NCBI GenBank assembly: GCA_963806185.1
Contig: CAWDXE010000007.1
Coordinates: 832,001 to 896,000 of the forward strand
DNA length: 64,000 nt
Direction of reading: 5' to 3'
DNA from: an uncultured candidate division Zixibacteria bacterium
Lineage (GTDB): Bacteria > Zixibacteria > MSB-5A5 > GN15 > FEB-12
In this document: positions 6,353 to 58,723 of the stretch, in pieces
Layout: every line of letters starts with the position of its first letter
How positions within the stretch are numbered: position 1 is the stretch's first letter
Position numbers and translations under genes: made by a program
The notes under the pieces: generated by a model
Seen by the model: the letters and a program-made list of their open reading frames with translations, nothing else
Told to the model about the DNA's origin: nothing
The model's database searches: none

Positions 6353-8632
6353 TCACCCCACCGTCACCGCCAGCATGTACTCCAGCAGCTTCTTTACCCC
6401 CTCTTTGCCCCCCTCGCCAACCTCCAGCGGCGGCCCGATGCAGGTCGGACACCCGCCCGCACACGGGCAGTTGCGAACATGCTCCAGACATGCTTCAAAC
6501 AACTTCTCCGCCTCGATAAACAGCTTCTCCGACAACCCCACTCCGCCGGGAATATTCTCATACACATAGATCGTCGGCAACTCCGTAAACGGCGCCCGCA
6601 CCTGCGAAATCGACCGCAAGTCGCGCGGATCGCACATCACCCAGAGCGGCGCGATCGTGCCGATCACATTCGCCAGTCCGCGCAATGCTCCGCCGAACAC
6701 GCTTCCCTGAAGGTTCAGCTTGGCGGCAATATCTCCCGGAAACGCATACCAGAACGCATGAGTGTGCATCTCCAGTTCGGGCAGCGTCAGTTGCCCCGAG
6801 CCGACATTCTCATGCGTCTCAAACTTGATCTTCTTGAACAGCACCGTCACACACGTCACCGAAACTTCGCCGCAGCAGGCGTGAGCGTTATCGAGCGTCT
6901 GCGTCTGCTGATTGAGCGCCAGCACCTTCAGGTCGGATTTCGTCTCGGCGTCGGTGTAGTAATCAACCGACACCTCTTTGACGTACGCTTTCTTTCCCTC
7001 CCAATCCAGATTCGTCACCTGATACTGGTTGGCCCCGTGAAGGTAGATTGCCTCGGGATGCAGAAAGATCGGCGCCGAGAAATAGTCGACCTCGCCGATC
7101 ACCTCGGACTGTCTCGATTCATTGAGTATGACAAAATTATCCGGCGACGCCGACCTGAGCGACACCTGCTGCGCCGGGTAGATCTCGCTCGACCAGTGAT
7201 ACCGTCCTCCCGAATTGCGCAGGATCCGTTCGTCCGCCAGGTAACCCAGGATGCCGGCCGTATTGGCGTCCGAACCATACTCATCCTGGTCAAACGGTAG
7301 TTCAAACACCGCACACTTCAGATGATTCGTCTTGATGATCAGGTTATCCGGATCGATAATTCCCGACTCCGGCGTACGGTCAAACAGATATTTCGGCTCC
7401 GCCACCAGAAACTGATTGATCGCCGTCGAATTGGCCACCAGCACCGTCACCGCCGTTCCCGACCGCCGCCCGGCTCGTCCGGCCTGCTGCCAGAGTGACG
7501 CTATCGAGCCGGGGTACCCCACAATGATCGACACATCGAGCGACCCGATATCTATCCCCAGCTCGAGCGCATTGGTCGACACCACTCCGGTAATCTCGCC
7601 GTTGCGCAGTCCCTGCTCGATCCGCCGCCGTTCATTGGGCAAATACCCACCACGATACCCCGCCACCGAAATCCCCTGCCCGAAGTCACCTTTGAGTTCG
7701 CGCTGGAGATAGGTGAGCAGCACCTCGACATATAACCGGTAATGCGCAAAGACAATCGTCTGAATTTTGTTGCGCAGGAACATCGCCGCCACGCGAGCCG
7801 CCTCGGTCACCGATGATTTCCTGATTCCCAACTGCTTGTTCAAGACCGGCGGATTGTACACGATGACATGCTTCTCGCCCGACGGTGCGCCGTTGTTGTC
7901 GATCAACCTGACCGGCCGTTGGATAATCCTCTGGGCCAGATCATCAGGATTGGCAATCGTCGCCGAACAACAGATGAACGTCGGATTCGAGCCATAAAAT
8001 CTACAGATCCGCTGCAGCCGCTTGATGACGTTCGCCAGATGCGATCCGAACACACCCCGGTAGTGATGAATCTCGTCGATCACCACATACTGCAGATTCT
8101 CGAACAGCTTGATCCACTTGGTATGATGGGGAAGAATCCCCGCATGCAGCATGTCCGGATTGGTAACGACGATGTGTCCCGCCGACCGAATCGCCCGCCG
8201 TGCCGTTTGCGGCGTGTCCCCGTCAAACGTGTAGGTTTTGATATCGACATCGAGCCTCTGGATCAGATCATACAGTTCACTCAGTTGGTCCTGGGAAAGC
8301 GCCTTGGTAGGGAAGAGGTACAACGCGCGCGCATTCGGATCTTTGAGAATCCGCTGTAACACGGGAATGGTGAAGCATAGGGTCTTGCCCGAGGCCGTCG
8401 GCGTCACCACCACCAGATCTTCGTTGTTCATCGCCGCTTGCACTGCCTCGGCCTGGTGGCTGTACAACTGCTTGACGCCTCGACGGGCCAACGCGTCGGT
8501 CAGCCGCCGATCAAGCCCGGCCGGAAAATCGGCATACACCGGCTCTCGCGATGGCAGCGTCCGCCATACCGCTATATTCTTCTTGAAATCGGAATCAGTG
8601 CGAAGAACGTCGAGAAGTTGCTCAAGCGTCAT
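6353..8632 (-). CDS. DEAH-box helicase with DUF1998 C-terminus (MrfA/SftH/Hrq1 family)
   Basis: PTASGKT, PTKALSQDQ, DEIH, SAT, TNALELGIDIG, QQAGRAGRR, and C-terminal CPCAGGCPTC. Confidence 0.93.
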   Translation of the reverse strand: MTLEQLLDVLRTDSDFKKNIAVWRTLPSREPVYADFPAGLDRRLTDALARRGVKQLYSHQAEAVQAAMNNEDLVVVTPTASGKTLCFTIPVLQRILKDPNARALYLFPTKALSQDQLSELYDLIQRLDVDIKTYTFDGDTPQTARRAIRSAGHIVVTNPDMLHAGILPHHTKWIKLFENLQYVVIDEIHHYRGVFGSHLANVIKRLQRICRFYGSNPTFICCSATIANPDDLAQRIIQRPVRLIDNNGAPSGEKHVIVYNPPVLNKQLGIRKSSVTEAARVAAMFLRNKIQTIVFAHYRLYVEVLLTYLQRELKGDFGQGISVAGYRGGYLPNERRRIEQGLRNGEITGVVSTNALELGIDIGSLDVSIIVGYPGSIASLWQQAGRAGRRSGTAVTVLVANSTAINQFLVAEPKYLFDRTPESGIIDPDNLIIKTNHLKCAVFELPFDQDEYGSDANTAGILGYLADERILRNSGGRYHWSSEIYPAQQVSLRSASPDNFVILNESRQSEVIGEVDYFSAPIFLHPEAIYLHGANQYQVTNLDWEGKKAYVKEVSVDYYTDAETKSDLKVLALNQQTQTLDNAHACCGEVSVTCVTVLFKKIKFETHENVGSGQLTLPELEMHTHAFWYAFPGDIAAKLNLQGSVFGGALRGLANVIGTIAPLWVMCDPRDLRSISQVRAPFTELPTIYVYENIPGGVGLSEKLFIEAEKLFEACLEHVRNCPCAGGCPTCIGPPLEVGEGGKEGVKKLLEYMLAVTVG

Positions 8633-8644
8633 GACTGGCCTGGG

Positions 8645-9187
8645 TTACACCACACTGGTGAGTTGTCGACGACAGATATCACAGAACTTGTCCGTCTTGG
8701 AATCGATATCAAGCATGATCTGGCTGTAGTAATTCACACACTTCGGATTTCGACATTCGGTCATATCAAACAGGTGCGCCAGCTGGTGAACTACTTCTTT
8801 GAAAAGGCGCGGATATACTTTGCTCTCATCCTCCGGCAGTCCGTAAAACTCCTGCCGAATATGATACAGCGAAATGATCGCCGTCCCCGACAGCCGGTCG
8901 CTGAGACTCATAATGTACGGCTCATCCGGCATATACAGGTCCTCTTCACAGATGGCCACTACCTTCTCGCGGCTGTTCGCCTTCGTCCGTTCGATCTTGG
9001 CCAGGATTACCTGCGCGTAGTGCTGATTGCGGACAACATTGTACGCCTCGGTCGGCATCTTCATCCCCTTGAGAATGTCCACCGACCGATTAAACACCGG
9101 ACCTATATTTGACGCGAGCTTGTTGACCAGCATAAAGTCAACTTCGCCCATGGGAACAACGACAACTTTCGATTTCACTATCGACAC
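8645..9187 (-). CDS. Archaemetzincin (peptidase M54)-like protein with a degenerate active site
   Basis: Family motifs RNQHYA, DLY, RQEFYG, CRNPKCV...FCDIC. The zinc motif reads HQLAHLFDMTEC. Confidence 0.8.
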   Translation of the reverse strand: MSIVKSKVVVVPMGEVDFMLVNKLASNIGPVFNRSVDILKGMKMPTEAYNVVRNQHYAQVILAKIERTKANSREKVVAICEEDLYMPDEPYIMSLSDRLSGTAIISLYHIRQEFYGLPEDESKVYPRLFKEVVHQLAHLFDMTECRNPKCVNYYSQIMLDIDSKTDKFCDICRRQLTSVV

Positions 9188-9205
9188 CTCGTCAGCCCCC
9201 GCGCT

Positions 9206-9397
9206 TCACTCGGCCGTGAAGAATCGCGACGACGAACCGGTAGGCGAGACCTTGACCTCGACCTTGGCAGCACATTTCGGACACCACCCCACAAACGCCG
9301 TACCGGCCGCATTCAGGTATATCCGCGAATAGACCTTGCAGCAAGCGAAACTTACGCCGATAAACGGCCGCTTCGTCGGGGCAGGCTCCTCTTTCAT
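9206..9397 (-). CDS. Small Cys-rich putative metal-binding protein (63 aa)
   Basis: RPFIGVSFACCKVYSRIY...GWCPKCA. RBS ggtgaggga precedes the ATG; lies inside an operon. Confidence 0.75.
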   Translation of the reverse strand: MKEEPAPTKRPFIGVSFACCKVYSRIYLNAAGTAFVGWCPKCAAKVEVKVSPTGSSSRFFTAE

Positions 9398-9473
9398 TCC
9401 CTCACCAATATACGCATTTCGCCCGTCCGGCAAGGTTCAAATTACTCCCCATAATCTGCCTCTTTCGGCACCG

Positions 9474-10148
9474 TCAACCACCTTTGACCGCAAGCAGTTC
9501 CGCCATAATACGGACCGATGCCGAGCTTCCGATTCGGCTCGCACCGGCAAAAATCATTGCCTTTGCTTCCGCCAACGTCCGAATCCCCCCGGCCGCCTTC
9601 ACCTCAATCCGCCCTGCGCTCAAACGCACGAGGCTCTGCACCTGCTCCACCGTCGCCGATCCAAACATACCCGTAGCTGTCTTCGCAAACTGTGCCCCAC
9701 CGGCAACGATACATTCCACTCCGGCCTTCACTTGATCTACAGTCAACTTATTCACTTCCAGGATGACCTTCAGTTTCACCTCCGTGGGGAGATTTCGACG
9801 AACTTTCCGAATTTCTGCAAGCACCGAATCGGTATCTCTACCGACCAGCCAGCCGACATTGACCACCATGTCGATCTCGTCCGCACCATCTTCGGCAGCC
9901 CCCGCCGCTTCGGCAACCTTAATGTCCGTCCGCGTTGCTCCCATGGGGAAACCGGCCACACTCACCACCAGGACCCCGGCCCCTTTCAACTGTTCCTTTG
10001 CCGGTCTCACCCACACCGGATTGACACAAACCCCCGCAAATCCAAACTGCCTCGCCTCCTCGCAGAGACGCGCTATCGCACTCGCGTCCGCCTCTTGCGC
10101 CAATAGCGTGTGCTCAATCCGTCGCGGCAGCTCTGTTTCGCCAATCAA
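9474..10148 (-). CDS. deoC: Deoxyribose-phosphate aldolase
   Basis: IEHTLL, GFPMGA, GADEIDMV, KVILE, KTATG, VKAAGGIRT, GASRIGSS. Confidence 0.95.
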   Translation of the reverse strand: MIGETELPRRIEHTLLAQEADASAIARLCEEARQFGFAGVCVNPVWVRPAKEQLKGAGVLVVSVAGFPMGATRTDIKVAEAAGAAEDGADEIDMVVNVGWLVGRDTDSVLAEIRKVRRNLPTEVKLKVILEVNKLTVDQVKAGVECIVAGGAQFAKTATGMFGSATVEQVQSLVRLSAGRIEVKAAGGIRTLAEAKAMIFAGASRIGSSASVRIMAELLAVKGG

Positions 10149-10154
10149 GCTCGT

Positions 10155-11337
10155 TCATTTCTTTAGCATTTCTGCGAAGCTCTTGCCGGGAAAGTTCGCC
10201 TTCACCTCCAGCAACTCACCCAGTGTCGACGCCAGATCGGCAAAACTCGGCCTTGTTCCGACATTTACACCCTTTGCGATTCGCTCCCCATACATCAGTA
10301 CCGGTACATATTCGCGCGAATGATCGGTCGACGTCTTGATCGTCGGGTCACACCCGTGATCGGCCGTGATGACCAGTATGTCATCTTCCGTCAATTGCGG
10401 TAGTACATCTCCCAACTGCCGGTCAAACGCCTCGAGCGACTTCGCGAAATTCACCTCGTCGTTGCGATGCCCCCACCATTGATCGAAATCAACACAATTG
10501 GCAAAGATCAACTGATGCTCACGATCGGTATCGATGGCGTCGCGTATCGCCGCCATGACTTCGTCATTATTGGCCGTCTTCAACTTTTTCGCGATCCCCC
10601 GCCCGGCAAACAGATCGTAGATCTTGCCGATCGCCAGCACCTTGTCACCCCGCCTGGTCAATTCATCCAGCAGCGTGGGGGAGGGGGGCACGCGCGAAAA
10701 ATCACGCCGCCCGTCGGTGCGCACAAACGATCCCGGCTCTCCGACAAACGGCCGCGCAATTACGCGCCCAACATCGTAGGGACCAACACACAGATCGCGC
10801 GCAGATTTGACAGATCCGATATAAACGCTCTCGGGAATACAATTTCTCATGCGCGGCCAACTGAAAGACCGAATCGGCCGAGGTATACAGGATCAGCGCG
10901 CCTGTGGCCAGATGTTCCGCCCCCAACCGCTCGATAATCTCCGTTCCACTGGCGGCACAGTTGCCGATTGTCTTGACTCCCGTCGCTCTCTCAAATCGGC
11001 TCACCAACTCCTGCGGAAAACCGTCGGGGAATACAGGGAAAGCCTCCGGTAGTATGACCCCCGCCATTTCCCAGTGCCCGGTTGTCGAATCCTTGCCGGG
11101 CGACTTCTCCGCCATCTTGCCGTACGCCCCTTCCGGTTGTTCTGCCGGCGCGACACCGGCTATCGGCACGATATTGCCCAGCCCCAGCCGCCGGCAATTG
11201 GGCATAGTCAATCCGCCGACCGCCGCGGCCACGTGGGGAATTGTCGATGAACCCACGTCGCCGTAGTTCGCCGCGTCCGGAAGCTCTCCGACACCACACG
11301 CATCGATGACAATAATAATGACTCGCGCCCTTTTCAT
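10155..11337 (-). CDS. deoB: Phosphopentomutase (frameshift near 10803, probably a sequencing error)
   Basis: DACGVGELPDA, GKDSTTGHWE and YTSADSVFQ in one frame; RVIARPF, GHRND, TADHGCDP and DHSREYVP in another. Confidence 0.93.
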
Positions 11338-11383
11338 AGTCTGCCAATCTACTGCTTGAACTCGCTCCACGCCATCACAAAAC

Positions 11384-11412
11384 AAAAGCCCCGCGTGACG
11401 GCACGCGGGGCT
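11384..11412 (-). terminator. Intrinsic terminator
   Basis: agccccgcgtg/cacgcggggct stem with a U-tract on the minus strand. Confidence 0.7.
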
Positions 11413-11432
11413 CAACGTACTATTCTCGAGGC

Positions 11433-12290
11433 CTATTTTCCGGGCGATTTTACATCGCGCAGAGCGTACGAAACTTCATAGTTTACCGCCACTGTGTAAT
11501 CCTGATTCTTGCCGTTCATGGTCCGCTGACGTTTTCCGTGCAGGTCCCACGTTTCTCTCTGCAGCACGACTATGCCCTGCTTGTAGGCAAAATACAATTT
11601 CCCCTGCATGTGGACCCGATCCACACCGCGCCGCTTCAGTGAGTCGGCCGGCGCCGCGTCCAGCGGCAATACCATGTTACCGTCATACGACACGACGGCG
11701 CAATCGTACCCCTGCTCCCGCACGAATGATTCTATCTTGAAAGTCGTCGATGCATCGATCGGCCCTTCGTCGAGAATCACCTTCGTCGACTGCGTCCACG
11801 CGTACCCCAGCCCGATTTCTTCACTGGGGAATACCGGCATCCCCTGCTCATAGAAATTCTTGAGGTACGACACGTTCATATCCTCCGTGCCGGTGACAAA
11901 CTGAAGATCCAGCACCTTTCCATTGGGAGCGATATACATGATCAGCTCGCGCCCCGGCTCCGTGCTGTCGATTCTTGACGAGTCGATTCTGTTAAACGAC
12001 TTGAACCGAAACTGGCTCTTTTCCGTGACTTCGCCCACTGAATCGTCGACTATCCGCCGAACTTCAGTCTCGACTGTGGCGGTAATCTCATTCACCCGAT
12101 CGCTGATCAGGGAATCACCGCGGGCTCCCTTGGCCATCGCCTTGGAAGTCCCTTTAGTGACCTGCTCGTAGACGAGATGCTGGCCGGTTTCAAATTTGTA
12201 CTGAATCCTGACTGATTTCCCGCCCTGATTGCAGCCCAGGCCGAGCAAAATCAGAAGGGGCAGGAGTGAGGTTCTTATGATTCGATTCAT
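11433..12290 (-). CDS. Hypothetical lipoprotein, beta-rich
   Basis: Lipobox LLGLG-C; follows the ECF sigma and anti-sigma genes on the same strand. Confidence 0.75.
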   Translation of the reverse strand: MNRIIRTSLLPLLILLGLGCNQGGKSVRIQYKFETGQHLVYEQVTKGTSKAMAKGARGDSLISDRVNEITATVETEVRRIVDDSVGEVTEKSQFRFKSFNRIDSSRIDSTEPGRELIMYIAPNGKVLDLQFVTGTEDMNVSYLKNFYEQGMPVFPSEEIGLGYAWTQSTKVILDEGPIDASTTFKIESFVREQGYDCAVVSYDGNMVLPLDAAPADSLKRRGVDRVHMQGKLYFAYKQGIVVLQRETWDLHGKRQRTMNGKNQDYTVAVNYEVSYALRDVKSPGK

Positions 12291-12320
12291 ACGTCTCCGT
12301 CTCGCAGGTGTTCGCGCTCC

Positions 12321-12887
12321 TCATTTAGCTAGGAGCAGACAGGCAAACTCGCCCATTCGTCCATGGACAGGCGGCCCGAGTAAACTCACGGCCCCGGCCA
12401 GTTTTGCCCGCTCCCTGGCTGTATATATCTCATCGGTCGGAATGGTTAACGGATTGATACTCGCCGCCACGAGAAACTCTTTGGTCGGCGTCTGAACGAC
12501 AAATGTTCCGTTGTGGCGCTGTGAGCCAAGCCAGATGGCGCCCAGCAGGACAACCAGCGAAAAGGCCACTGAGGCGACCGACCGCATCAGCGTCTGGCGA
12601 GCCTCGCGGGAGGCCGAGACCGGTACGCGTTGATAAACTGGTGACGGAGGAGCTTCCCCTTCCACCGTCCGCGCGAGAATGAGCCGGGATACTTCATCCC
12701 AGTACTCATCTCCCGGGTCCGGCCGGGAAAGTCCTTTGATCATGCTCTTGAGGATGGCCGATGATTCGACCTCAGCCCGGCATTCATCGCATTCCAGCAG
12801 GTGTGCCTTCAGCGACTCGGCGGTAGCCAGGTCAACCTCACTATCGACATAGTCCTCAAGAAGCGAATGGGTGTGGCGGCACGTCAT
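12321..12887 (-). CDS. Zinc-binding anti-sigma factor (zf-HC2/ZAS)
   Basis: MTC...HLLECDEC motif, one TM helix, directly downstream of the ECF sigma. Confidence 0.88.
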   Translation of the reverse strand: MTCRHTHSLLEDYVDSEVDLATAESLKAHLLECDECRAEVESSAILKSMIKGLSRPDPGDEYWDEVSRLILARTVEGEAPPSPVYQRVPVSASREARQTLMRSVASVAFSLVVLLGAIWLGSQRHNGTFVVQTPTKEFLVAASINPLTIPTDEIYTARERAKLAGAVSLLGPPVHGRMGEFACLLLAK

Positions 12888-12889
12888 TC

Positions 12890-13465
12890 TTACCCCTTCC
12901 TGGATATCCGCTTCTGGAGAATCTTCTTTAACTTCGATCTGGCGATGTGCAAATTGGAGCGAACCGTCGCTTCCGGACACCCGAGGATCTGCGCAATCTC
13001 ACTCTTCGTGTACCCTTCAACGTCGTGCAGGATTGCCGTCAGTCTCTGGCGCGGGGGAAGAGTGCCCAGGGCTTTGGTTATCTCCGCCATCACCACCTTG
13101 TCTTCGAACAGCTCGCCCGGTGTCCGCACCTTGCGCGAAAGTTCAATCTGATCTTCCGTCGGCAATAGGCTCACATCATCGGTGACCCTGGCCCGACCCC
13201 GCTGCTTCCGCAGCAGATCGATTGAATAGTTCGTGGCTACCCGTATCAAAAACGAGGTGAAATTCTGTACGTTGGAAAGCTCCTTTCGTCGACGGTATAC
13301 CCGAACAAACGTCTCCTGGACCACTTCGTCCGCGTCCAGATGACTGCCCAGAATCTCAAAAGCCAGATAGTAGACCCGCTTCTGATACCGACTGACCAGT
13401 TCAGCAAATGCCGTGGCATCGCCCTGGATAAACCGTTCGACCAATTCGGGAATTGTCTCTGTCAT
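12890..13465 (-). CDS. ECF RNA polymerase sigma factor
   Basis: Region 2 DADEVVQETFVR; region 4 EIAQILGCPEATVRSNLHIAR. Confidence 0.93.
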   Translation of the reverse strand: MTETIPELVERFIQGDATAFAELVSRYQKRVYYLAFEILGSHLDADEVVQETFVRVYRRRKELSNVQNFTSFLIRVATNYSIDLLRKQRGRARVTDDVSLLPTEDQIELSRKVRTPGELFEDKVVMAEITKALGTLPPRQRLTAILHDVEGYTKSEIAQILGCPEATVRSNLHIARSKLKKILQKRISRKG

Positions 13466-44282: not shown

Positions 44283-44818
44283 ATGAGTAAGCTTGTCGAG
44301 AAGCTGTTGCCCGAGGTAAATCAGATAAAGGATCAGCAACTGCGGACGCAGGTGGTCGCCTGTTGGGATGAAGCGATTGCGTTTCGCGGCTGGACTGAAG
44401 AGTTGTTGCGGGGGATTCCGTTCACGCTGTTGGCGGAGGGGGTGACTATATCGTTTATCGACCATGTGCGGGCGGTTTGCCTGATGTGTGTCGCCTGCGA
44501 CGACGTATTGGACAAAATCCACGCCGAGCGCAAGACAAAGATCAACCGGGATCATTTGATTGCCGGGGCGCTGCTGGCGGATGTCGGCAAACTGCTGGAG
44601 TTCGAGATCGTGAGCGGCAAGCCGGTAAAGTCGGATTACGGGAAACATATTCGGCATCCGTTTGCGGGGTGGGATTGGCGTTCAAGCATGGGGTACCGTC
44701 GGAGGTGATGCATATCATCGCGACTCATTCGAAGGAAGGGACGGGGGAGACGCGGAGTCCGGAGTCGATTGTCTTTCACCATGCGGATTTCATTGATTTT
44801 GATTTGGTGAAGGGGTGA
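44283..44818 (+). CDS. HD-domain phosphohydrolase-like protein (frameshift near 44665)
   Basis: IPFTL..HV, AGALLADVGK, RHPF, then HIIATHS.EG..RSPE..VFHHADF. Promoter TTGACC-N17-TATCTT at 44210-44238. Confidence 0.82.
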
Positions 44819-44828
44819 GGGGGGAGCG

Positions 44829-45530
44829 ATGAGGGAGGTGGCTATTCGAACCGGGATAGGGCGTCTGTGCAGTACTGCGGGCATTACGGTGAGCATGGTA
44901 CTGGCTTGTGTCTCAGGCGCTGGCGCCTGGCTGCCATGCGAACGTAGCTTTCAGTTTATGGGGATAGAGGTTGGCGATACGACGGCAATTTCATTTTACG
45001 AATCTTCGTGGGGAGATTGCGTTTACCATCAGTTGCACAGAGTCATAATAGGCCCGGGAGATCAGTTTGTGCGGGACGAGATCAACTCGATTCCCGATAC
45101 TGCGATACAACAACTCCGGGAATCGAGCAGAAATTCGCGTCTTTGTATTCGGCGACTTCATCGCATGGACTCCGTGTTTTCCTCACCGGTTCGCGGTTGG
45201 GGGATGTGTACTGTCCGGGCTCCAAAGTTCGATTCGTCTTTCTGGTCAGTTTGGGAGGATTCGCTACCGTCTAGGCAGAGTGTGGATGAATCCAGAGCTT
45301 GGGCGTATTTCACAGATGTAAACTGGCTCCGAGATCATATTGACGAACCGGTGATTGATGAACCGTCGTATCTCATCTACTACTTTCCGGAGGGGCTTTA
45401 CAAGAACTTCTCTATAGCTGACGTCATAATGGTAGATGACCGTTACCTCTTCATCCTTACGCAACAGCCGATGACGGTTGATGGATGGACGCTGGACGGC
45501 CTCATGATTTATCGTCTGAAGGGAAAGTAG
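44829..45530 (+). CDS. Hypothetical exported protein
   Basis: 233-aa ORF with RBS and signal-like segment; more AT-rich than its neighbours. Confidence 0.65.
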   Translation: MREVAIRTGIGRLCSTAGITVSMVLACVSGAGAWLPCERSFQFMGIEVGDTTAISFYESSWGDCVYHQLHRVIIGPGDQFVRDEINSIPDTAIQQLRESSRNSRLCIRRLHRMDSVFSSPVRGWGMCTVRAPKFDSSFWSVWEDSLPSRQSVDESRAWAYFTDVNWLRDHIDEPVIDEPSYLIYYFPEGLYKNFSIADVIMVDDRYLFILTQQPMTVDGWTLDGLMIYRLKGK

Positions 45531-45591
45531 CATCAACCAAGAATCGCTTCATCCTGAATTCTGTAGATTTGACTATTGAAGGACCTGAAAT

Positions 45592-47565
45592 ATGCCCCAA
45601 ACCCTCGTTGAAAAAATCGCCCAAAAGTTTGCCGTCGGCCTTGAGCCCGGGCAACTGGTCAAAGGCGGTGACTATATTTCGATCCGCCCGGCGTACGTCA
45701 TGACCCATGACAATACCGGGGCGGTAATTCCTAAATTCAAATCAATCGGCGCGACCAAGATCTTCAATCCGCGACAGGTGGTCTTTGCGCTCGATCACAA
45801 CGTCCAGGATACGTCGGAAGGGAATCTGAAGAAGTATCGCGGCATCGAGCAGTTTGCCAAGGATCACGGGATTGACTTCTATCCGGCGGGACGGGGCATA
45901 GGTCATCAGATCATGTGCGAAGAGGGGTACGCCTGGCCGTTGACGATGGTGGTGGCCTCCGACAGCCACTCGAACATGTACGGTGGCCTGGGGTGTCTGG
46001 GGACGCCGATTGTCCGGACTGATGCGGCGGCGATCTGGTCGACCGGGCGGACCTGGTGGCAGGTGCCGCCGATTGCCAAGGTGGTGCTCAAGGGGAAATT
46101 GCATCCGGGTGCGACCGGGAAAGATGTCATCATCACTCTGTGCGGGTTCTTCAACAAGGACGAAGTGTTGAATCATGCGGTCGAGTTTTCCGGCGAAGGG
46201 ATTCAGCGGCTGTCCATTAACGACCGATTGGCGATTGCCAATATGACGACCGAATGGGGAGCGCTGGCGGGTGTGTTCCCGATTGACCATGTGACCATCG
46301 ACTGGTTGCGCAAGCGAGCCGATTTCATCGCCAAGCGGGGTCTGGCCAAGGTACCGTCGGACGCCGACGGGAAGGGACATCATCCGCGCATGGGTTTTGA
46401 ACGGGTGGCGGAACTCGAGATGAATCCGCTGCACCCCGATCACGGGGCGTTTTATGCCAAGGAGCTTCATCTCGATCTGGCGTCAGTGGTGCCGCATGTG
46501 TCGGGACCTGATACGGTGAAGACGATGTCACCGATTTCGGTCATCCGAGAACAACGCGTGAAGATTGACAAGGCGTACCTGGTGTCGTGCGTGAACAGCC
46601 GGGTCGACGATCTTGCGGCAGCCGCGAACGTAATCAAAGGGAAGAAGGTTGCGCAAGGGGTGAAGTTCTATATCGCGGCGGCATCGAGCGAAGTTCAAGC
46701 CGAGAGCGAACGTCGCGGCGACTGGCAGGCGCTCCTGGATGCAGGGGCGATTCCGTTGCCGCCCGGGTGCGGACCGTGCATCGGTCTGGGGACCGGTTTG
46801 CTTGAGGACGGCGAAGTCGGCATTTCAGCGACCAACCGGAATTTCAAGGGGCGGATGGGGTCGAAGAGTGCCCATGCGTACCTGGGATCGCCGGAAGTCG
46901 TGGCGGCTTCGGCGGTGGCCGGAATCATCGATATGCCGGAGGCGCACAAGGTGGTGCCGGTGGTAGCCTCGGTGAAAGAGAATCATCGCGAGGGAGTTGC
47001 AGCCGCGAAGGTGCGAATCGTCAAGGGATTTCCGCCCGTGGTAGACGGGGAGTTGATCTACTGCCATCAGGACAACATGAACACCGATGGCATTTACCCC
47101 GGCAAGTACACCTATCAGGATGACATGACACCGGCGCAGCAGGCGCAGGTGGTGATGGAGAATTACGATCCGGAGTTCGGGAAGATCGTCAAAGAGGGTG
47201 ATCTGCTGGTGGGCGGCTTCAATTTCGGCACCGGATCATCGCGCGAACAGGCGGCGACAGCGCTGAAATATCGCGGCGTGCGGCTGGTGATTGGCGGATC
47301 GTTTAATGAGACCTATAAGCGGAACGCGTTGAATAACGGATTCCTGGCGGTGGAAGCGCCGGAACTAGTGAATGATTTAAAGGAGAAATTCGGCGCGGAG
47401 AAGCTGACCGTGCGAACGTCGATACAAGCGAAGATCGATTTTGCCGATTCGGTGCTTCAAGCCGACGGCAAGGAGTACGCCATTGGATCAATCGGTGCGG
47501 CAGCGCAGGAGTTGATAGTGACCGATGGGCTGGAGAACTGGGTGAAGAAGAATCTCAAGGGTTAA
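45592..47565 (+). CDS. lysF: Single-chain homoaconitase, fungal Lys4/LysF type (aconitase family)
   Basis: QTLVEKI..GDYISIRP..THDN, ASDSHSNMYGG, VSCVNSR, CGPCIGLG, SATNRNFKGRMG, NTDGIYPGKYTY, GSSREQAA. Large and swivel domains are fused. Confidence 0.87.
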   Translation: MPQTLVEKIAQKFAVGLEPGQLVKGGDYISIRPAYVMTHDNTGAVIPKFKSIGATKIFNPRQVVFALDHNVQDTSEGNLKKYRGIEQFAKDHGIDFYPAGRGIGHQIMCEEGYAWPLTMVVASDSHSNMYGGLGCLGTPIVRTDAAAIWSTGRTWWQVPPIAKVVLKGKLHPGATGKDVIITLCGFFNKDEVLNHAVEFSGEGIQRLSINDRLAIANMTTEWGALAGVFPIDHVTIDWLRKRADFIAKRGLAKVPSDADGKGHHPRMGFERVAELEMNPLHPDHGAFYAKELHLDLASVVPHVSGPDTVKTMSPISVIREQRVKIDKAYLVSCVNSRVDDLAAAANVIKGKKVAQGVKFYIAAASSEVQAESERRGDWQALLDAGAIPLPPGCGPCIGLGTGLLEDGEVGISATNRNFKGRMGSKSAHAYLGSPEVVAASAVAGIIDMPEAHKVVPVVASVKENHREGVAAAKVRIVKGFPPVVDGELIYCHQDNMNTDGIYPGKYTYQDDMTPAQQAQVVMENYDPEFGKIVKEGDLLVGGFNFGTGSSREQAATALKYRGVRLVIGGSFNETYKRNALNNGFLAVEAPELVNDLKEKFGAEKLTVRTSIQAKIDFADSVLQADGKEYAIGSIGAAAQELIVTDGLENWVKKNLKG

Positions 47566-47591
47566 GCGCAGACATAGAGGGATAGCAGGAG

Positions 47592-48960
47592 ATGGACAAG
47601 TCACTTTCTCGCCAGATCGCGGAGTTCGCGGTCGGGCTAAAATACAGCGACCTCCCGAAGGAGGTCGTTCACGAAGTAAAGCGGTATCTGTACGATTCGA
47701 TCGGGTGTGCCTACGGCGGGTATCGAACGAAAGACGTCAATATCCTCCGCGACATCTACAAGGATATGGGGGGTAAGCCGGAGGCGACGGTGATCGGCTT
47801 CGGCGACAAGATACCGGCAGTGAATGCGACGCTGGTCAATTCGCTGATGATCCGGGCGCTGGATTTCAATGACATCTATTGGAAAGAAGATCCAAGCCAT
47901 CCGTCGGATATTATTCCAGCGGCGCTGGCGGTCGGCGAGGTGATGAATTCGTCGATGGAGGAAGTGATTGTCGCGATCGTGCTGGCGTATGAATTCGAAC
48001 AGCGGCTCTGCGAGTTCGCCACGCCGGGGGTGCGAGAACGGAAGTGGCACCATGCGACGCTGACCCAGTTTGTGTCGCCGATCGTGGCAGGTAAGCTGAT
48101 GGGGCTTTCGGTGGACAAGATGGTGAACGCGATCGGAATCAACGGGTGCCACAATCATACGATCGGTTGTCCGACGGCGGGCAAACTGACGATGATGAAG
48201 AACACGGTTGACCCGATGGCGGTGCAGAGCGGGGTGTTTGCGGCGATGATGGCCGCCAAGGGGTATTCGGGCACGGAAGCGGTGTTCGAGGGGAAAGAGG
48301 GATTCATGGATTGCTTCGGCCCCGGCTGGGCGAACGAGAAGCTGGTCGGCGGGCTGGGGCAGAAATATCAAGATTCTCGAGTGCGGCATGAAGGCGTTTC
48401 CGACCGAGGCGCTCACGCACACGCATATAACCTGTACGTTGAAAGTAATCCGCGACAACGATATCACGCCGGAGCAGATCGAGACGGTGACGGTGACGAC
48501 GATCGCGCGGGCGTGCGATATTCTGTTTGACCAGCACAAGTATCATCCGGACTCACGCGAGACGGCGGATCATTCGCTGCCGTATTGTATCGCGGCGGCG
48601 ATCGTGGATCGTCAGATCACGACCGCCAGTTTCTCGGATGAGAAGTTGAAAGACCCGCGCATCTGGGAGGTGATCACGAAGATCAAAGGGGAAGCGTCGA
48701 AAGAATTCGAAGCGATGTTTCCGGCCAAGCAGCCCTCGAAGGTGGTGGTGCGGACGACGGCGGGGAAGGAGTTCTCGGCGTACCTGGAGTATCCGAAGGG
48801 TGATCCGCGCGAGCCGATGACGCAGGATGATTTGCGGGCGAAGTTTAATGCGCTGTCATCGCACCTGTTTGATGCGCAGCGTCAGGCGAAGCTGGAGCAG
48901 GTGATCATGAATTGTGCGCCGTTGACGGCGGTGGAGTTTATGGGGGGGCTGGGCGCGTAG
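47592..48960 (+). CDS. prpD: MmgE/PrpD-family dehydratase (frameshift near 48370)
   Basis: RALDFND, SHPSD, MMKN, EGKEG, ETADHSLPY, YPKGDPR. Confidence 0.88.
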
Positions 48961-48988: not shown

Positions 48989-49888
48989 ATGAAGGTGTTC
49001 ATCAGTTGGTCGGGTCCGAGATCGCGTCATGTAGCGCTTGAGTTGAAGGAGTGGCTTCCACTCGTCATTAACGAGATAGAACCGTGGTTTTCGGCAACAG
49101 ATATCGATGCCGGGATGGTGTGGAATGACGAGATTTCAAAGCAGTTGTCCGAGAGCAATGTAGGGATAATCTGTGTGACCAAGGAATCGCTAAACTCCCT
49201 TTGGCAGACATTCGAGGCTGGGGCTCTCGCAAAAGCGGTCGACAAGGCCAGAGTAATCCCGCTACTCATCGACCTTCGGCCTGTTGAAGTCACCGGCCCA
49301 CTCTCCCAGTTCCAGGCCGTCCAAGCAGATCGTGAAGGAATTCTTCGAATGATGCAATCATTGCTTCGTACATGTGCGAATACACATCTCAGCGAGGACC
49401 AACTGAAGCGGTCTTTTGAAAGCCTGTGGCCGCAGCTTGAGCGGATTCTGAATTCCGTTCCATCTTTGTCCGCCAGCAGTCAGTCAGTGAGATCAGATCG
49501 GTCGCTGATGGAGGAAATACTTCAAACTGTGCGAGGTCTGACGAAATCGACTGGCAATCGTCAGAGTGGATTATCACAAGCGGATGAGAGTACGATTGGC
49601 GGGACTTTCAACCCGGTACACCTCAAGCTAATAGTCGATATGAATGCACTCGACAAAGGCTTTCTGATGTTGAGTGACAGTCCTGAAGCGCATACCCTTG
49701 ACTCTCTCTTAATGTCAATAAGAGAAGCTTTAAACTTTGATACTAAAGACTACGGAAAGACATGGATACTAACATACCCATCAAAGGATAATCCCTTAAT
49801 GCCCTCGCCGTACAGCAAGAGTCTATCGTTAGCTCAGGCATTCGGAGTGGTGGCGGGCAGCAGGATTATTGCTGTAAAACTTGCTTGA
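48989..49888 (+). CDS. TIR-domain protein with an uncharacterised C-terminal domain
   Basis: MKVFISWSG, DIDAG..W..EI, GIICVT, FEAGAL, GPLSQFQ. Confidence 0.88.
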   Translation: MKVFISWSGPRSRHVALELKEWLPLVINEIEPWFSATDIDAGMVWNDEISKQLSESNVGIICVTKESLNSLWQTFEAGALAKAVDKARVIPLLIDLRPVEVTGPLSQFQAVQADREGILRMMQSLLRTCANTHLSEDQLKRSFESLWPQLERILNSVPSLSASSQSVRSDRSLMEEILQTVRGLTKSTGNRQSGLSQADESTIGGTFNPVHLKLIVDMNALDKGFLMLSDSPEAHTLDSLLMSIREALNFDTKDYGKTWILTYPSKDNPLMPSPYSKSLSLAQAFGVVAGSRIIAVKLA

Positions 49889-58077: not shown

Positions 58078-58526
58078 GGGGGTTGGACCCCATGGATTCT
58101 GGACCGTTGGTCCAGAATGACAAGGGGGGAGTTTCGTTGACACTGAGATTCCGAAGCGCGCTAAGAAGCGGCCTCGGAATGACAATGCGGGGGTTGGACC
58201 CCATGGATTCTGGACCGTTGGTCCAGAATGACAAGGGGGGAGTTTCGTTGACACTGAGATTCCGAAGCGCGCTAAGAAGCGGCCTCGGAATGACAATGCG
58301 GGGGTTGGACCCCATGGATTCTGGACCGTTGGTCCAGAATGACAAGGGGGAAGTTTTGTTGACACTGAGATTCCGAAGCGCGCTAAGAAGCGGCCTCGGA
58401 ATGACAATGCGGGGGTTGGGTCCCATGGATTCTGGACCGTTGGTCCAGAATGACAATGGGGAGGATTTGTTGACACTGAGATTCCGAAGCACGCTAAGAA
58501 GCGGCTTCGGAATGACAATGCGGGGG
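58078..58526. repeat. Four tandem 111-bp units, each holding two different palindromes (BIME-like)
   Basis: Equivalent positions at 58083, 58194, 58305, 58416 and 58527; units nearly identical. Confidence 0.95.
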
Positions 58527-58723
58527 ATGGGACTCGCTCAAGGCGGGGGTGACATTGGGCAGAGGAGACAGTTAACCGGAAAACTGCTTGCTTCTGACCG
58601 CCAAAACGGTAAGTTTACCGTCTTACGTCATCAGCCGGGCGACCGGCGAAATGTCGAAGTAAGCAGAACCTCAGCAAGGACTTAGATCGACCCCGCCGTC
58701 GATCAACACAAGGGACCAAGACA

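Follow-up and report, generated by a model that had tools for sequence, protein, structure and literature searches.

A homoaconitase-centred gene module of Zixibacteria and its possible role in the breakdown of 2-oxoadipate through homocitrate

Background

The locus studied here raises the question why an uncultured bacterium of the candidate division Zixibacteria carries a gene for a single-chain homoaconitase of the fungal type next to a gene of the MmgE/PrpD family, and in which conversion the two products could take part. The genes lie in a stretch of 64,000 nucleotides (contig CAWDXE010000007.1 of assembly GCA_963806185.1; hereafter the window), for which a first-pass annotation had proposed that PrpD and LysF together convert homocitrate, citrate or methylcitrate to the respective iso form, and that the clade may bear on the origin of fungal LYS4. 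In the part of PMC3556520 that we draw on, fungal homoaconitases are described as performing the homoaconitate/homoisocitrate step only and the methanogen HacAB-type enzyme as performing both hydro-lyase steps. Our analysis leads to a degradative reading, namely that the genes belong to a module that runs the upper aminoadipate pathway in reverse, from 2-oxoadipate to acetyl-CoA and 2-oxoglutarate; we give this reading somewhat better than even chances.

Results and discussion

Genes of the locus

Table 1. Location of the genes discussed. The first four are in window coordinates, the last three lie on other contigs (C3, C4) of the window's genome (G000).
Feature	Location	Strand	Description	Basis
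HD-fold protein gene	44283..44818	+	~177 aa, one frameshift near 44667	orthologue identity, fold
Orphan ORF	44829..45530	+	233 aa, between HD and lysF; outside the module	
lysF	45592..47565	+	single-chain Lys4-type homoaconitase, 657 aa	TIGR00139 score, tree, cysteines, loop
MmgE/PrpD-family gene	47592..48960	+	~455 aa, one frameshift near 48370	PF03972, PF19305
Isocitrate-family dehydrogenase	C4:80744-81862			
Second SucCD-like ligase (SucCD2)	C3:~45300-47357			
Citryl-CoA-lyase-family protein (Ccl)	C4:209173-209937			

The first-pass description of a fused, fungal-type aconitase-family protein is borne out by profile searches, in which LysF scores 891.6 bits against the homoaconitase model TIGR00139 (cut-off 529.9), stays under each LeuC, HacA, AcnA and AcnB cut-off shown, and holds the large and the swivel domain (PF00330 and PF00694) in one chain. 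Its Fe-S cysteines (C333, C393 and C396) are invariant across 22 sequences, its specificity loop GIYPGKYTYQDD is the same as in named fungal homoaconitases, and it is 63% identical to the Basidiobolus enzyme. A tree of 33 rows groups LysF with the named fungal Lys4 proteins (100/100) apart from LeuC and HacA, with a branch of 1.99, i.e. some 2.0 changes per column, towards the HacAB-type enzymes. Grouping with LeuC or AcnA had been named beforehand as an outcome that would contradict the proposal; the tree, in which AcnA and mitochondrial aconitase rows are absent, places LysF away from LeuC, and its AcnA score is below the cut-off. The window's genome has a separate AcnA-like gene, as well as IDH-like genes, citrate synthase and a TCA-type SucCD. 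LysF is thus a predicted homoisocitrate/cis-homoaconitate hydro-lyase.

The ATG of the next gene lies 26 bp past the lysF stop, as noted before. That its product is a PrpD holds at the family level (PF03972, 248 bits; PF19305, 158 bits) but not for PrpD proper, since an intact orthologue reaches 61-85 bits against equivalog cut-offs of 458-950. The full-length protein is nearer cis-aconitate decarboxylase and IDS epimerase than PrpD (best PDB matches ACOD1 and IDS epimerase). It retains the LDFND..HPSD motif, for which PrpD is the best match in a local search, though a weak one (E 0.07), and its motifs are near-invariant in 59 orthologues that were themselves motif-selected. From these features we predict a cis-homoaconitate/(S)-homocitrate hydro-lyase. 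The reading of the gene is split over two frames, and likewise that of the HD gene, whose two pieces match an intact orthologue at 74% and 88% identity; both frameshifts are probably assembly errors.

The HD protein (the orthologue matches PF01966 and TIGR00277) is indeed atypical, as had been claimed: the His of the dyad is replaced by Ala or Ile in 70/77 sequences (Ala in the window's copy), while the Asp is kept in 77/77. A structure model (pLDDT 92) aligns with the HD domain of YhaM over 157 residues (Z 16.2, rmsd 2.9). Among the phylum genomes HD and Ccl occur together in 86/87, and the distribution of HD follows the activation and cleavage genes; our guess is that the protein serves that step, e.g. 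as a lactonase or repair hydrolase. The orphan ORF has no Pfam or NCBIfam match, nothing was found by tblastn over 249 other loci, and its GC content is 51% (lysF: 58%); it is inserted between HD and lysF and does not belong to the module.

Linkage and co-occurrence

We surveyed 110 genomes of the phylum, 74 with and 36 without LysF; because these genomes are related, the counts overstate independence. LysF genomes encode Ccl in 73/74 cases, the isocitrate-family dehydrogenase in 72/74, HD in 69/74 and an MmgE/PrpD-like gene in 69/74, the latter being present in 8/36 genomes without LysF. It is this co-occurrence that makes the proposed split isomerisation by PrpD and LysF plausible; the lysine-synthesis direction and the methylcitrate role considered for it find no support (see below). 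Fifteen of the 110 genomes lack all six components.

Among 80 GTDB loci, HD is found within 2.5 kb upstream of lysF in 38 of the 63 with enough flank and, of the 54 with enough flank on the other side, 33 have a PrpD-like gene no more than 3 kb downstream, a linkage that is not due to chance; the dehydrogenase is found in 29 of the 80, CitD-CitE in 23 and CitF in 21. In the window's genome the six-component module is spread over three contigs, with HD, lysF and MmgE/PrpD as the linked core. Families f7 and f15 have the SucC-like, SucD-like, Ccl, HD and LysF genes in one operon (in a variant locus, L168, the operon comprises Ccl, HD and LysF, with SucCD upstream), and the dehydrogenase lies within ~7 kb of it in 6/7 fetched regions and ~60 kb off in the genome G090. 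SucCD2 adjoins HD in five genomes (G104, G084, G105, G046 and G101); other genes often near it we take, by recognition, to be succinate-dehydrogenase-like, which counts against the role proposed for it below. In Ignavibacteria CitDEF occupies the operon slot of ligase and Ccl.

A replacement cassette

Another gene set, composed of a two-subunit HacAB-type enzyme, a CaiB CoA-transferase and an HMG-CoA-lyase-like (HMGL) enzyme, is present in 7/7 dehydrogenase-positive, HD-negative genomes, all of which also lack PrpD, versus 3/84 HD-positive ones; two of the contrasts fall within a genus (G120 versus G040, G065 versus G055). In six cassette genomes the sole dehydrogenase of the module type sits elsewhere in the genome. 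In this distribution the HMGL cassette and the HD/PrpD set replace each other. Linkage of LysF to PrpD elsewhere, the absence of which was to count against a joint function, is accordingly not universal: five LysF genomes have no MmgE/PrpD gene, and all five have the HacAB-type cassette. The cassette's large subunit passes TIGR01343 (hacA_fam) and in this resembles methanogen and Thermus HacAB and LysTU, which are two-subunit enzymes whereas the window's LysF is single-chain; in the cassette, however, HacAB is partnered by a CoA-transferase and a lyase and not, as in those systems, by a synthase. Our literature search found no published description.

A putative route from 2-oxoadipate through homocitrate

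The substrate, stereochemistry and direction that we infer for the module are as follows. The dehydrogenase would reductively carboxylate 2-oxoadipate to homoisocitrate, which LysF would dehydrate to cis-homoaconitate; the MmgE/PrpD protein would hydrate this to (S)-homocitrate, SucCD2 would activate it with ATP to homocitryl-CoA, and Ccl would cleave the latter to acetyl-CoA and 2-oxoglutarate. In Ignavibacteria CitDEF may take over the last two steps, and in genomes without HD and PrpD (R)-homocitrate would be handled by HacAB, the CaiB CoA-transferase and the HMG-CoA-lyase-like enzyme. Ccl and CitE are Si-face lyases and aconitases yield the (R) isomer, which is why a PrpD-type enzyme would be needed. 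This stereochemical rule does not account for 11 genomes in which Ccl, SucC2 and HD occur along with the dehydrogenase while LysF and PrpD orthologues are both missing; the five of these that were tested have no MmgE/PrpD gene (5/5).

The degradative direction is suggested by the slot of the synthase, which is filled by three unrelated activation-plus-lyase systems, the other module members being cleavage and activation enzymes. The same direction is favoured by the rarity of LysW and of synthase-length HMGL matches and by the lack of complementation by LysA (counts below), as well as by the substrate loops of SucC2. Against the reading, none of the lysine-degradation genes tested in the 110 genomes tracks the module, and a saccharopine/lysine-dehydrogenase-like gene is present in 14/15 module-negative genomes and missing from families f11, f12, f14 and f17.

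The fungal upper alpha-aminoadipate pathway (Lys20/21, Aco2/AcoA, Lys4/LysF, Lys12) shares the LysF family and the predicted intermediates, and its isomerisation is likewise split over two enzymes, as stated in the part of PMC3556520 used here. It differs from the module, which has cleavage enzymes in place of the synthase, no lower lysine pathway, a second hydro-lyase of the MmgE/PrpD type instead of an aconitase, and, as predicted, the reverse direction and the (S) isomer of homocitrate. With citryl-CoA synthetase plus lyase (6hxq, 6hxp) and CitDEF the module has in common the Ccl family and a linked SucCD-type ligase; the ligase is nearer succinyl-CoA synthetase, with altered substrate loops (PGGAG and ARFGG in place of the NGAG and NIFGG of succinyl-CoA synthetases), and is linked to the homoaconitase, not to reductive-TCA genes.

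Alternative readings

The same enzymes could work in the forward direction, as the steps are, by our own estimate, probably near equilibrium: acetyl-CoA and 2-oxoglutarate would give homocitryl-CoA, homocitrate (with ATP formed) and 2-oxoadipate, and from there glutaryl-CoA or another product, i.e. a chain-elongating oxidation of glutamate. In principle every step can be reversed, as is established for ligase, aconitase and lyase members of the families concerned, and the lack of a lysine-degradation gene that tracks the module fits as well. Nevertheless, three acyl-CoA dehydrogenases of the genome fall below the glutaryl-CoA dehydrogenase (Acd) model (278-308 versus 470; a fourth, frameshifted, is outside this comparison), a search for a GcdH-like motif found none in the fetched loci, and CitDEF and CaiB-plus-HMGL systems are known as degradative. 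We regard forward flow as unlikely.

Nearly as unlikely, but slightly more so, is a route with C6 acids, in which 2-oxoglutarate and CO2 would be converted via isocitrate, aconitate and citrate to acetyl-CoA and oxaloacetate (the citrate branch of the reductive TCA cycle). Ccl passes the citryl-CoA lyase model NF004869 (304, cut-off 212) and matches the solved structure 6hxp (E 7e-71), CitF passes its own model (501.7, cut-off 501.45), and the dehydrogenase, which passes no cut-off (best AksF2 HICDH, 328 versus 540), has an isocitrate dehydrogenase as its best PDB match, with Thermus HICDH at a similar score. Against this, LysF is of the Lys4 type and not an aconitase, AcnA-like and IDH-like genes are already in the genome, SucC2 is nearer SCS than citryl-CoA synthetase (5e-82 versus 8e-37), and with citrate as the substrate AcnA would suffice, leaving no need for the cassette's HacAB and HMG-CoA-lyase-like enzyme.

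The substrate might also be another alkyl-tricarboxylate or 2-oxo acid (methyl-branched or longer), or the PrpD-like protein might be a decarboxylase or epimerase giving a side product, in line with its PDB matches and with the functional diversity of the MmgE/PrpD family, which includes a racemase according to the portion of PMC12290011 available to us. The PrpD-type set and the HMGL cassette coexist in the window's genome, perhaps because they act on different substrates. We consider this improbable: the specificity loop of LysF is that of the fungal homoaconitases, and that a HacAB cassette can take the place of the set is more in keeping with an isomerisation step than with a side branch.

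Marginally less probable again is the synthesis of lysine of the aminoadipate type, with the PrpD-like protein and LysF isomerising (R)-homocitrate to homoisocitrate, the direction implied by the first-pass proposal. LysF is Lys4-like, LysA is above cut-off in 9/110 genomes, a saccharopine-dehydrogenase-like gene occurs in 90/110, and Caldithrix abyssi has LysWXZYJ and Hcs (PMC5317091, in the part used here), so that some carriers may use LysF in this way. The window's genome (82% complete), however, has no LysW and no homocitrate-synthase-type gene, an HMG-CoA-lyase-like match being the only one above cut-off; LysW is found in 1/110 phylum genomes (inside a 204-aa frame) and in 0/5 Calditrichota LysF genomes, and 58/74 LysF genomes have no synthase-length HMGL match. 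Nor does LysA complement the module (2/15 module-negative, 5/74 LysF genomes): loss of the module is not compensated, since 13/15 module-negative genomes lack LysA too. For the phylum the gene content largely refutes this reading.

The rarity of LysW and of PrpB-family genes (11/74 LysF genomes) makes both lysine synthesis and the methylcitrate cycle unlikely, and the latter, in which PrpD and LysF would dispose of propionate by turning 2-methylcitrate into 2-methylisocitrate, is very improbable: it shares with the module the pairing of a PrpD-family hydro-lyase with an aconitase-family enzyme (PrpC, PrpD, AcnB/AcnD, PrpB), the predicted Si-face geometry at C3 and the weak motif match, but the PrpD models are widely missed, and a decarboxylating dehydrogenase is co-inherited that could not oxidise the tertiary alcohol of 2-methylisocitrate. 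The reported absence of lysW, prpB and prpC from the window holds for the entire genome (82% complete), which has no match to the PrpB/PEP-mutase family (PF13714) and, as citrate-synthase-family genes, only a mitochondrial-type Si-citrate synthase and Ccl.

The origin of LYS4

Fungal Lys4 nests within the bacterial LysF family (AU p=0.009, post hoc), which upholds the suggestion that this clade bears on the origin of fungal LYS4. The published trees, as given in the part of PMC3556520 we draw on, held only Thermus and archaeal enzymes and could therefore not show the nesting; the bacterial family that holds fungal LYS4 is now named.

Conclusions

Complete or variant sets of the module are present in most of the 110 phylum genomes sampled, and parts of it also in Ignavibacteria, Calditrichota and other groups. 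We tentatively propose, with less confidence than the reverse pathway itself, that many anaerobic heterotrophs have a CO2-fixing, oxygen-independent 2-oxoadipate route in two interchangeable, mirror-image versions, one via (S)-homocitrate (PrpD-type hydratase and Si-lyase) and one via (R)-homocitrate (HacAB and HMG-CoA-lyase-like enzyme), and that eukaryotic LYS4 was recruited from its bacterial enzyme. The module is directly testable, because its enzymes are all soluble and Ignavibacterium album, a carrier of its genes, is in culture. If true, lysine and 2-oxoadipate would be degraded without oxygen and without glutaryl-CoA dehydrogenase, (S)-homocitrate would gain a metabolic role, genes now annotated under lysine synthesis, the methylcitrate cycle or citrate lyase would need correcting, and functions could be assigned to an atypical HD family and to a large, so far uncharacterised subfamily of MmgE/PrpD proteins.

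Organization of the lysF locus

The gene downstream of the HD-family gene was described in the first-pass annotation as a fused homoaconitase of the fungal type (LysF), and profile searches bear this out, since the protein passes the homoaconitase cut-off (Table) and falls below those shown for LeuC, HacA, AcnA and AcnB. Its close named homologues come from Zixibacteria, which hold the nearest one, Ignavibacteria and Calditrichota. The reported close spacing of the following MmgE/PrpD-family (PrpD-like) gene is likewise correct. Both the HD and the PrpD-like gene are interrupted, and they make up two of the 4 split loci among the 36 tested in this 82%-complete assembly, in which further split genes occur that we take, partly by recognition, to be acnA-like, sucCD2, idh-like and gyrA-like; for these reasons we read the two frame breaks as assembly errors. 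At 28 bp past the PrpD-like gene there is a gene for a TIR-domain protein (GC 49%) that matches Thoeris ThcB4 weakly (20 bits vs 220) and has no match in the 249 other loci; it is possibly an inserted defence gene. Further downstream, a repeated unit of ~35 codons that appears as a spurious-looking ORF is probably an intergenic tandem repeat.

Table. Features of the window and of its own genome (contigs C3, C4 and C7)
Feature	Position	Strand	Remarks
HD-family gene	window, start 44283		split over two frames
Orphan ORF, 233 aa	window 44829-45530	+	inserted between HD and lysF; start signal-peptide-like by eye
lysF, homoaconitase, 657 aa	window 45592-47565		TIGR00139, 891.6 bits vs cut-off 529.9
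MmgE/PrpD-family gene	window 47592-48960		starts 26 bp past lysF; split over two frames
TIR-domain protein	window 48989-49888	+	
Repeated unit	window 58083-58685		
Second SucCD pair (SucCD2)	C3:~45300-47357		
Isocitrate-family dehydrogenase of module	C4:80744-81862		
Citryl-CoA-lyase-family gene (Ccl)	C4:209173-209937		NF004869, 304 vs 212; PDB 6hxp, E 7e-71
LysR, dehydrogenase paralogue, HMG-CoA-lyase-like, CaiB CoA-transferase, HacA, HacB	C7:7951-14149		separate operon (L140); dehydrogenase paralogue to HacB within 7951-13015
Citrate synthase, mitochondrial/eukaryotic type	C7:720892-722199		NF007128, 531 vs 344

Phylogeny of LysF and the origin of LYS4

The first LysF trees, one of them of 55 rows, were quick trees; a careful tree was made of 33 rows, 22 of the 55 having been dropped as long branches or near-duplicates. 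In the careful tree the window's LysF forms one clade (100/100) with the sequences of Basidiobolus, Homolaphlyctis, Serendipita and Amoeboaphelidium, as the proposed kinship with Lys4 implied, and the HacA/LeuC-like outgroup is separated from this LysF/eukaryote clade by 1.99 changes per column. The eukaryotes group with the window's clade at 86/99, with the enzymes of Phycisphaerales and of families f7 and f15 of the phylum outside (97/93). Three sequences (P0282, P0458 and P0466) are sister to the window's bacterial clade (90/89) and not to the fungi; they have N-termini that look presequence-like by eye, the two that were compared are 63% identical to the window's LysF, and they possibly represent a second eukaryotic acquisition. 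An AU test on a quick tree of 27 rows, six fewer than in the careful tree, rejected the monophyly of the 13 bacterial rows (p-AU 0.0086), a group that was named after earlier trees and judged against a distant outgroup. The suggestion that this clade bears on the origin of fungal LYS4 thus holds: LYS4 is likely of bacterial origin within the LysF family, donor and direction being left apart. LYS4 has been reported in choanoflagellates and fungi, and the accessible part of that report gives no placement among bacteria (PMC4339202).

Conserved gene associations

The linkage seen in the window recurs in relatives: of 20 regions, 15 contain HD and 16 the PrpD-like gene. Among the best 80 of at least 589 matching GTDB loci, HD is found in 47, the PrpD-like gene in 43, an isocitrate-family dehydrogenase in 29, a CitD-CitE fusion in 23 and CitF in 21, the last three almost only in Ignavibacteriota/Bacteroidota. 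ORFs of ~120 aa (family F6) are variably present at the gene junctions in 20 of these best 80 loci (L057-L136). In Calditrichota lysF is nearly solitary (12 loci), and 4 of 5 such genomes have a PrpD orthologue elsewhere, in one case adjoining CitDE and in another the dehydrogenase and HD.

A common set of 110 genomes from the phylum, each with a completeness of 90% or more, was searched with every component. LysF is present in 74, Ccl in 93, the dehydrogenase in 91, the PrpD orthologue in 77, HD in 87 and SucC2 in 77, the last with a query that missed the divergent SucC of f7 and f15; the genomes are kin, and these counts are not independent trials. All six components are absent together in 15 genomes, and the LysF genomes nearly always contain Ccl (73/74), the dehydrogenase (72/74), PrpD and HD (69/74 each); Ccl is also present in 86 of the 87 genomes with HD. 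The genes for the ligase, Ccl, HD and LysF are clustered in f7 and f15, and SucCD2 adjoins HD in five other families. Given this co-occurrence and the clustering elsewhere, the window's genes are the part of a larger module that has stayed linked. The window's own genome holds the remaining components on other contigs (Table), besides a TCA-type SucCD that adjoins 2-oxoacid:ferredoxin oxidoreductase genes. Neighbours of SucCD2 are often genes that we take, by recognition, to be asparaginase-like, tryptophanase-like and succinate-dehydrogenase-like (L235-L247).

Eleven genomes possess Ccl, SucC2, HD and the dehydrogenase without PrpD or LysF. Among them are G104, G084, G109, G095 and G105 (L187-L191), which have no MmgE/PrpD gene; a distinct type of HacA is found near HD in 4 of the 5 HD regions fetched from such genomes, and SucC2 is preceded upstream by a class III aminotransferase in G104 (NF004426, 624 vs 552) and, by likeness, in G084.

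Replacement of one gene set by another

HD and any MmgE/PrpD gene are both missing from five of the LysF genomes, two of which consist of a single contig. All 7 genomes with the dehydrogenase and without HD (G012, G027, G030, G045, G065, G116 and G120) contain a short HMG-CoA-lyase-like (HMGL) gene of the type found in a cassette with CaiB, HacA and HacB, and this cassette is present in 3 of the 84 genomes that have both dehydrogenase and HD (G026, G046 and G119). The cassette HMGL gene is adjoined by CaiB and HacA in the regions fetched from G012, G027, G030, G116 and G120, by CaiB alone in G045, on a 9-kb contig, and by HacA and the dehydrogenase in G065, where CaiB is not displayed in the fetched region. 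The remaining short HMGL matches fetched are of another type, with 63-65% identity to a G043 gene that stands among leucine-catabolism-like genes. In G012, G026, G027, G030, G116 and G120 the cassette lacks a dehydrogenase of its own. This pattern of replacement, together with the cassettes without a dehydrogenase, implies that the pathway of the same dehydrogenase is completed by either of two unrelated gene sets, and we consider this replacement the strongest result of the analysis. The window's genome is among the few that keep both versions, the dehydrogenase paralogue of its cassette operon being 64% identical to the enzyme on C4.

Direction of the pathway

The place of a synthase is held by three kinds of activation-plus-lyase system. 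We incline, with modest confidence, to a module that runs catabolically through homocitrate, i.e. from 2-oxoadipate via homoisocitrate, homoaconitate and (S)-homocitrate to acetyl-CoA and 2-oxoglutarate. A biosynthetic use of LysF is possible in some carriers, as a LysW locus that includes Hcs is known from Caldithrix abyssi (PMC5317091). The first-pass proposal was that PrpD and LysF jointly isomerize homocitrate or citrate/methylcitrate; within the phylum, lysine synthesis and the methylcitrate cycle are rejected, from gene content, as the setting of such a step. LysW occurs in 1 of 110 genomes; an HMGL match of synthase length is lacking in 58 of the 74 genomes with LysF, the six such matches that were classified passed no cut-off, and a partial synthase-length sequence of G111 is NifV-like. 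LysA exceeds its cut-off in 9/110; five of these genomes have LysF, and just 2 belong to the 15 without the module. The absence of lysW and prpB noted for the window extends to the contigs of its genome (82% complete), in which neither a homocitrate-synthase-type gene nor CitDE (CitE), CitF or a LysA over the cut-off was found and no glutaryl-CoA dehydrogenase could be identified; PrpB-family genes are present in 11 of the 74 genomes with LysF. Lysine degradation was also considered as a connection, through a saccharopine/lysine-dehydrogenase-like gene, and rejected, as that gene does not track the module.

Four operons (L221, L222, L224 and L227, of G069, G088, G070 and G055) encode a synthase-like HMGL protein of 410-450 aa whose scores stay below the IPMS, HCS and citramalate cut-offs; its gene is followed by HacA/HacB and in many cases by a dehydrogenase, and acyl-CoA or 2-oxoacid oxidoreductase-like genes adjoin.

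Proposed stereochemistry

Fungal homoaconitases interconvert homoaconitate and homoisocitrate only, the other step being carried out by aconitases, methanogen HacAB catalyses both hydro-lyase steps, and PrpD performs a syn-elimination of water from (2S,3S)-methylcitrate (PMC3556520). CitE carries the name citrate (pro-3S)-lyase. Ccl would be Si-specific, like CitE, Re-type enzymes exist among the HMGL-family lyases, and (R)-homocitrate is the isomer handled by homocitrate synthase and the aconitases. By CIP mapping, addition of acetyl to the Si face of 2-oxoglutarate would yield (S)-homocitrate, whose C3 would have the same configuration as in the substrate of PrpD; this match may explain why a PrpD-type enzyme accompanies the Si-lyases and is absent from the HacAB/HMGL cassette, but it leaves unexplained the 11 genomes with Ccl, SucC2, HD and the dehydrogenase that lack PrpD and LysF.

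The structure model of the HD protein (pLDDT 92) shows the HD fold (YhaM Z 16.2), and YhaM is also the sole match when the aligned HD sequences are searched against PDB (E 0.026). The dyad histidine is missing in 70 of 77 sequences and several basic residues are kept; that the protein acts as a lactonase or a repair enzyme is a guess.

A literature search, with most subscription journals and supplements outside its reach, found no account of the cleavage of homocitrate, of the metabolism of homocitryl-CoA or of operons like these. The module is real, conserved and uncharacterised, and constitutes a variant of known chemistry.
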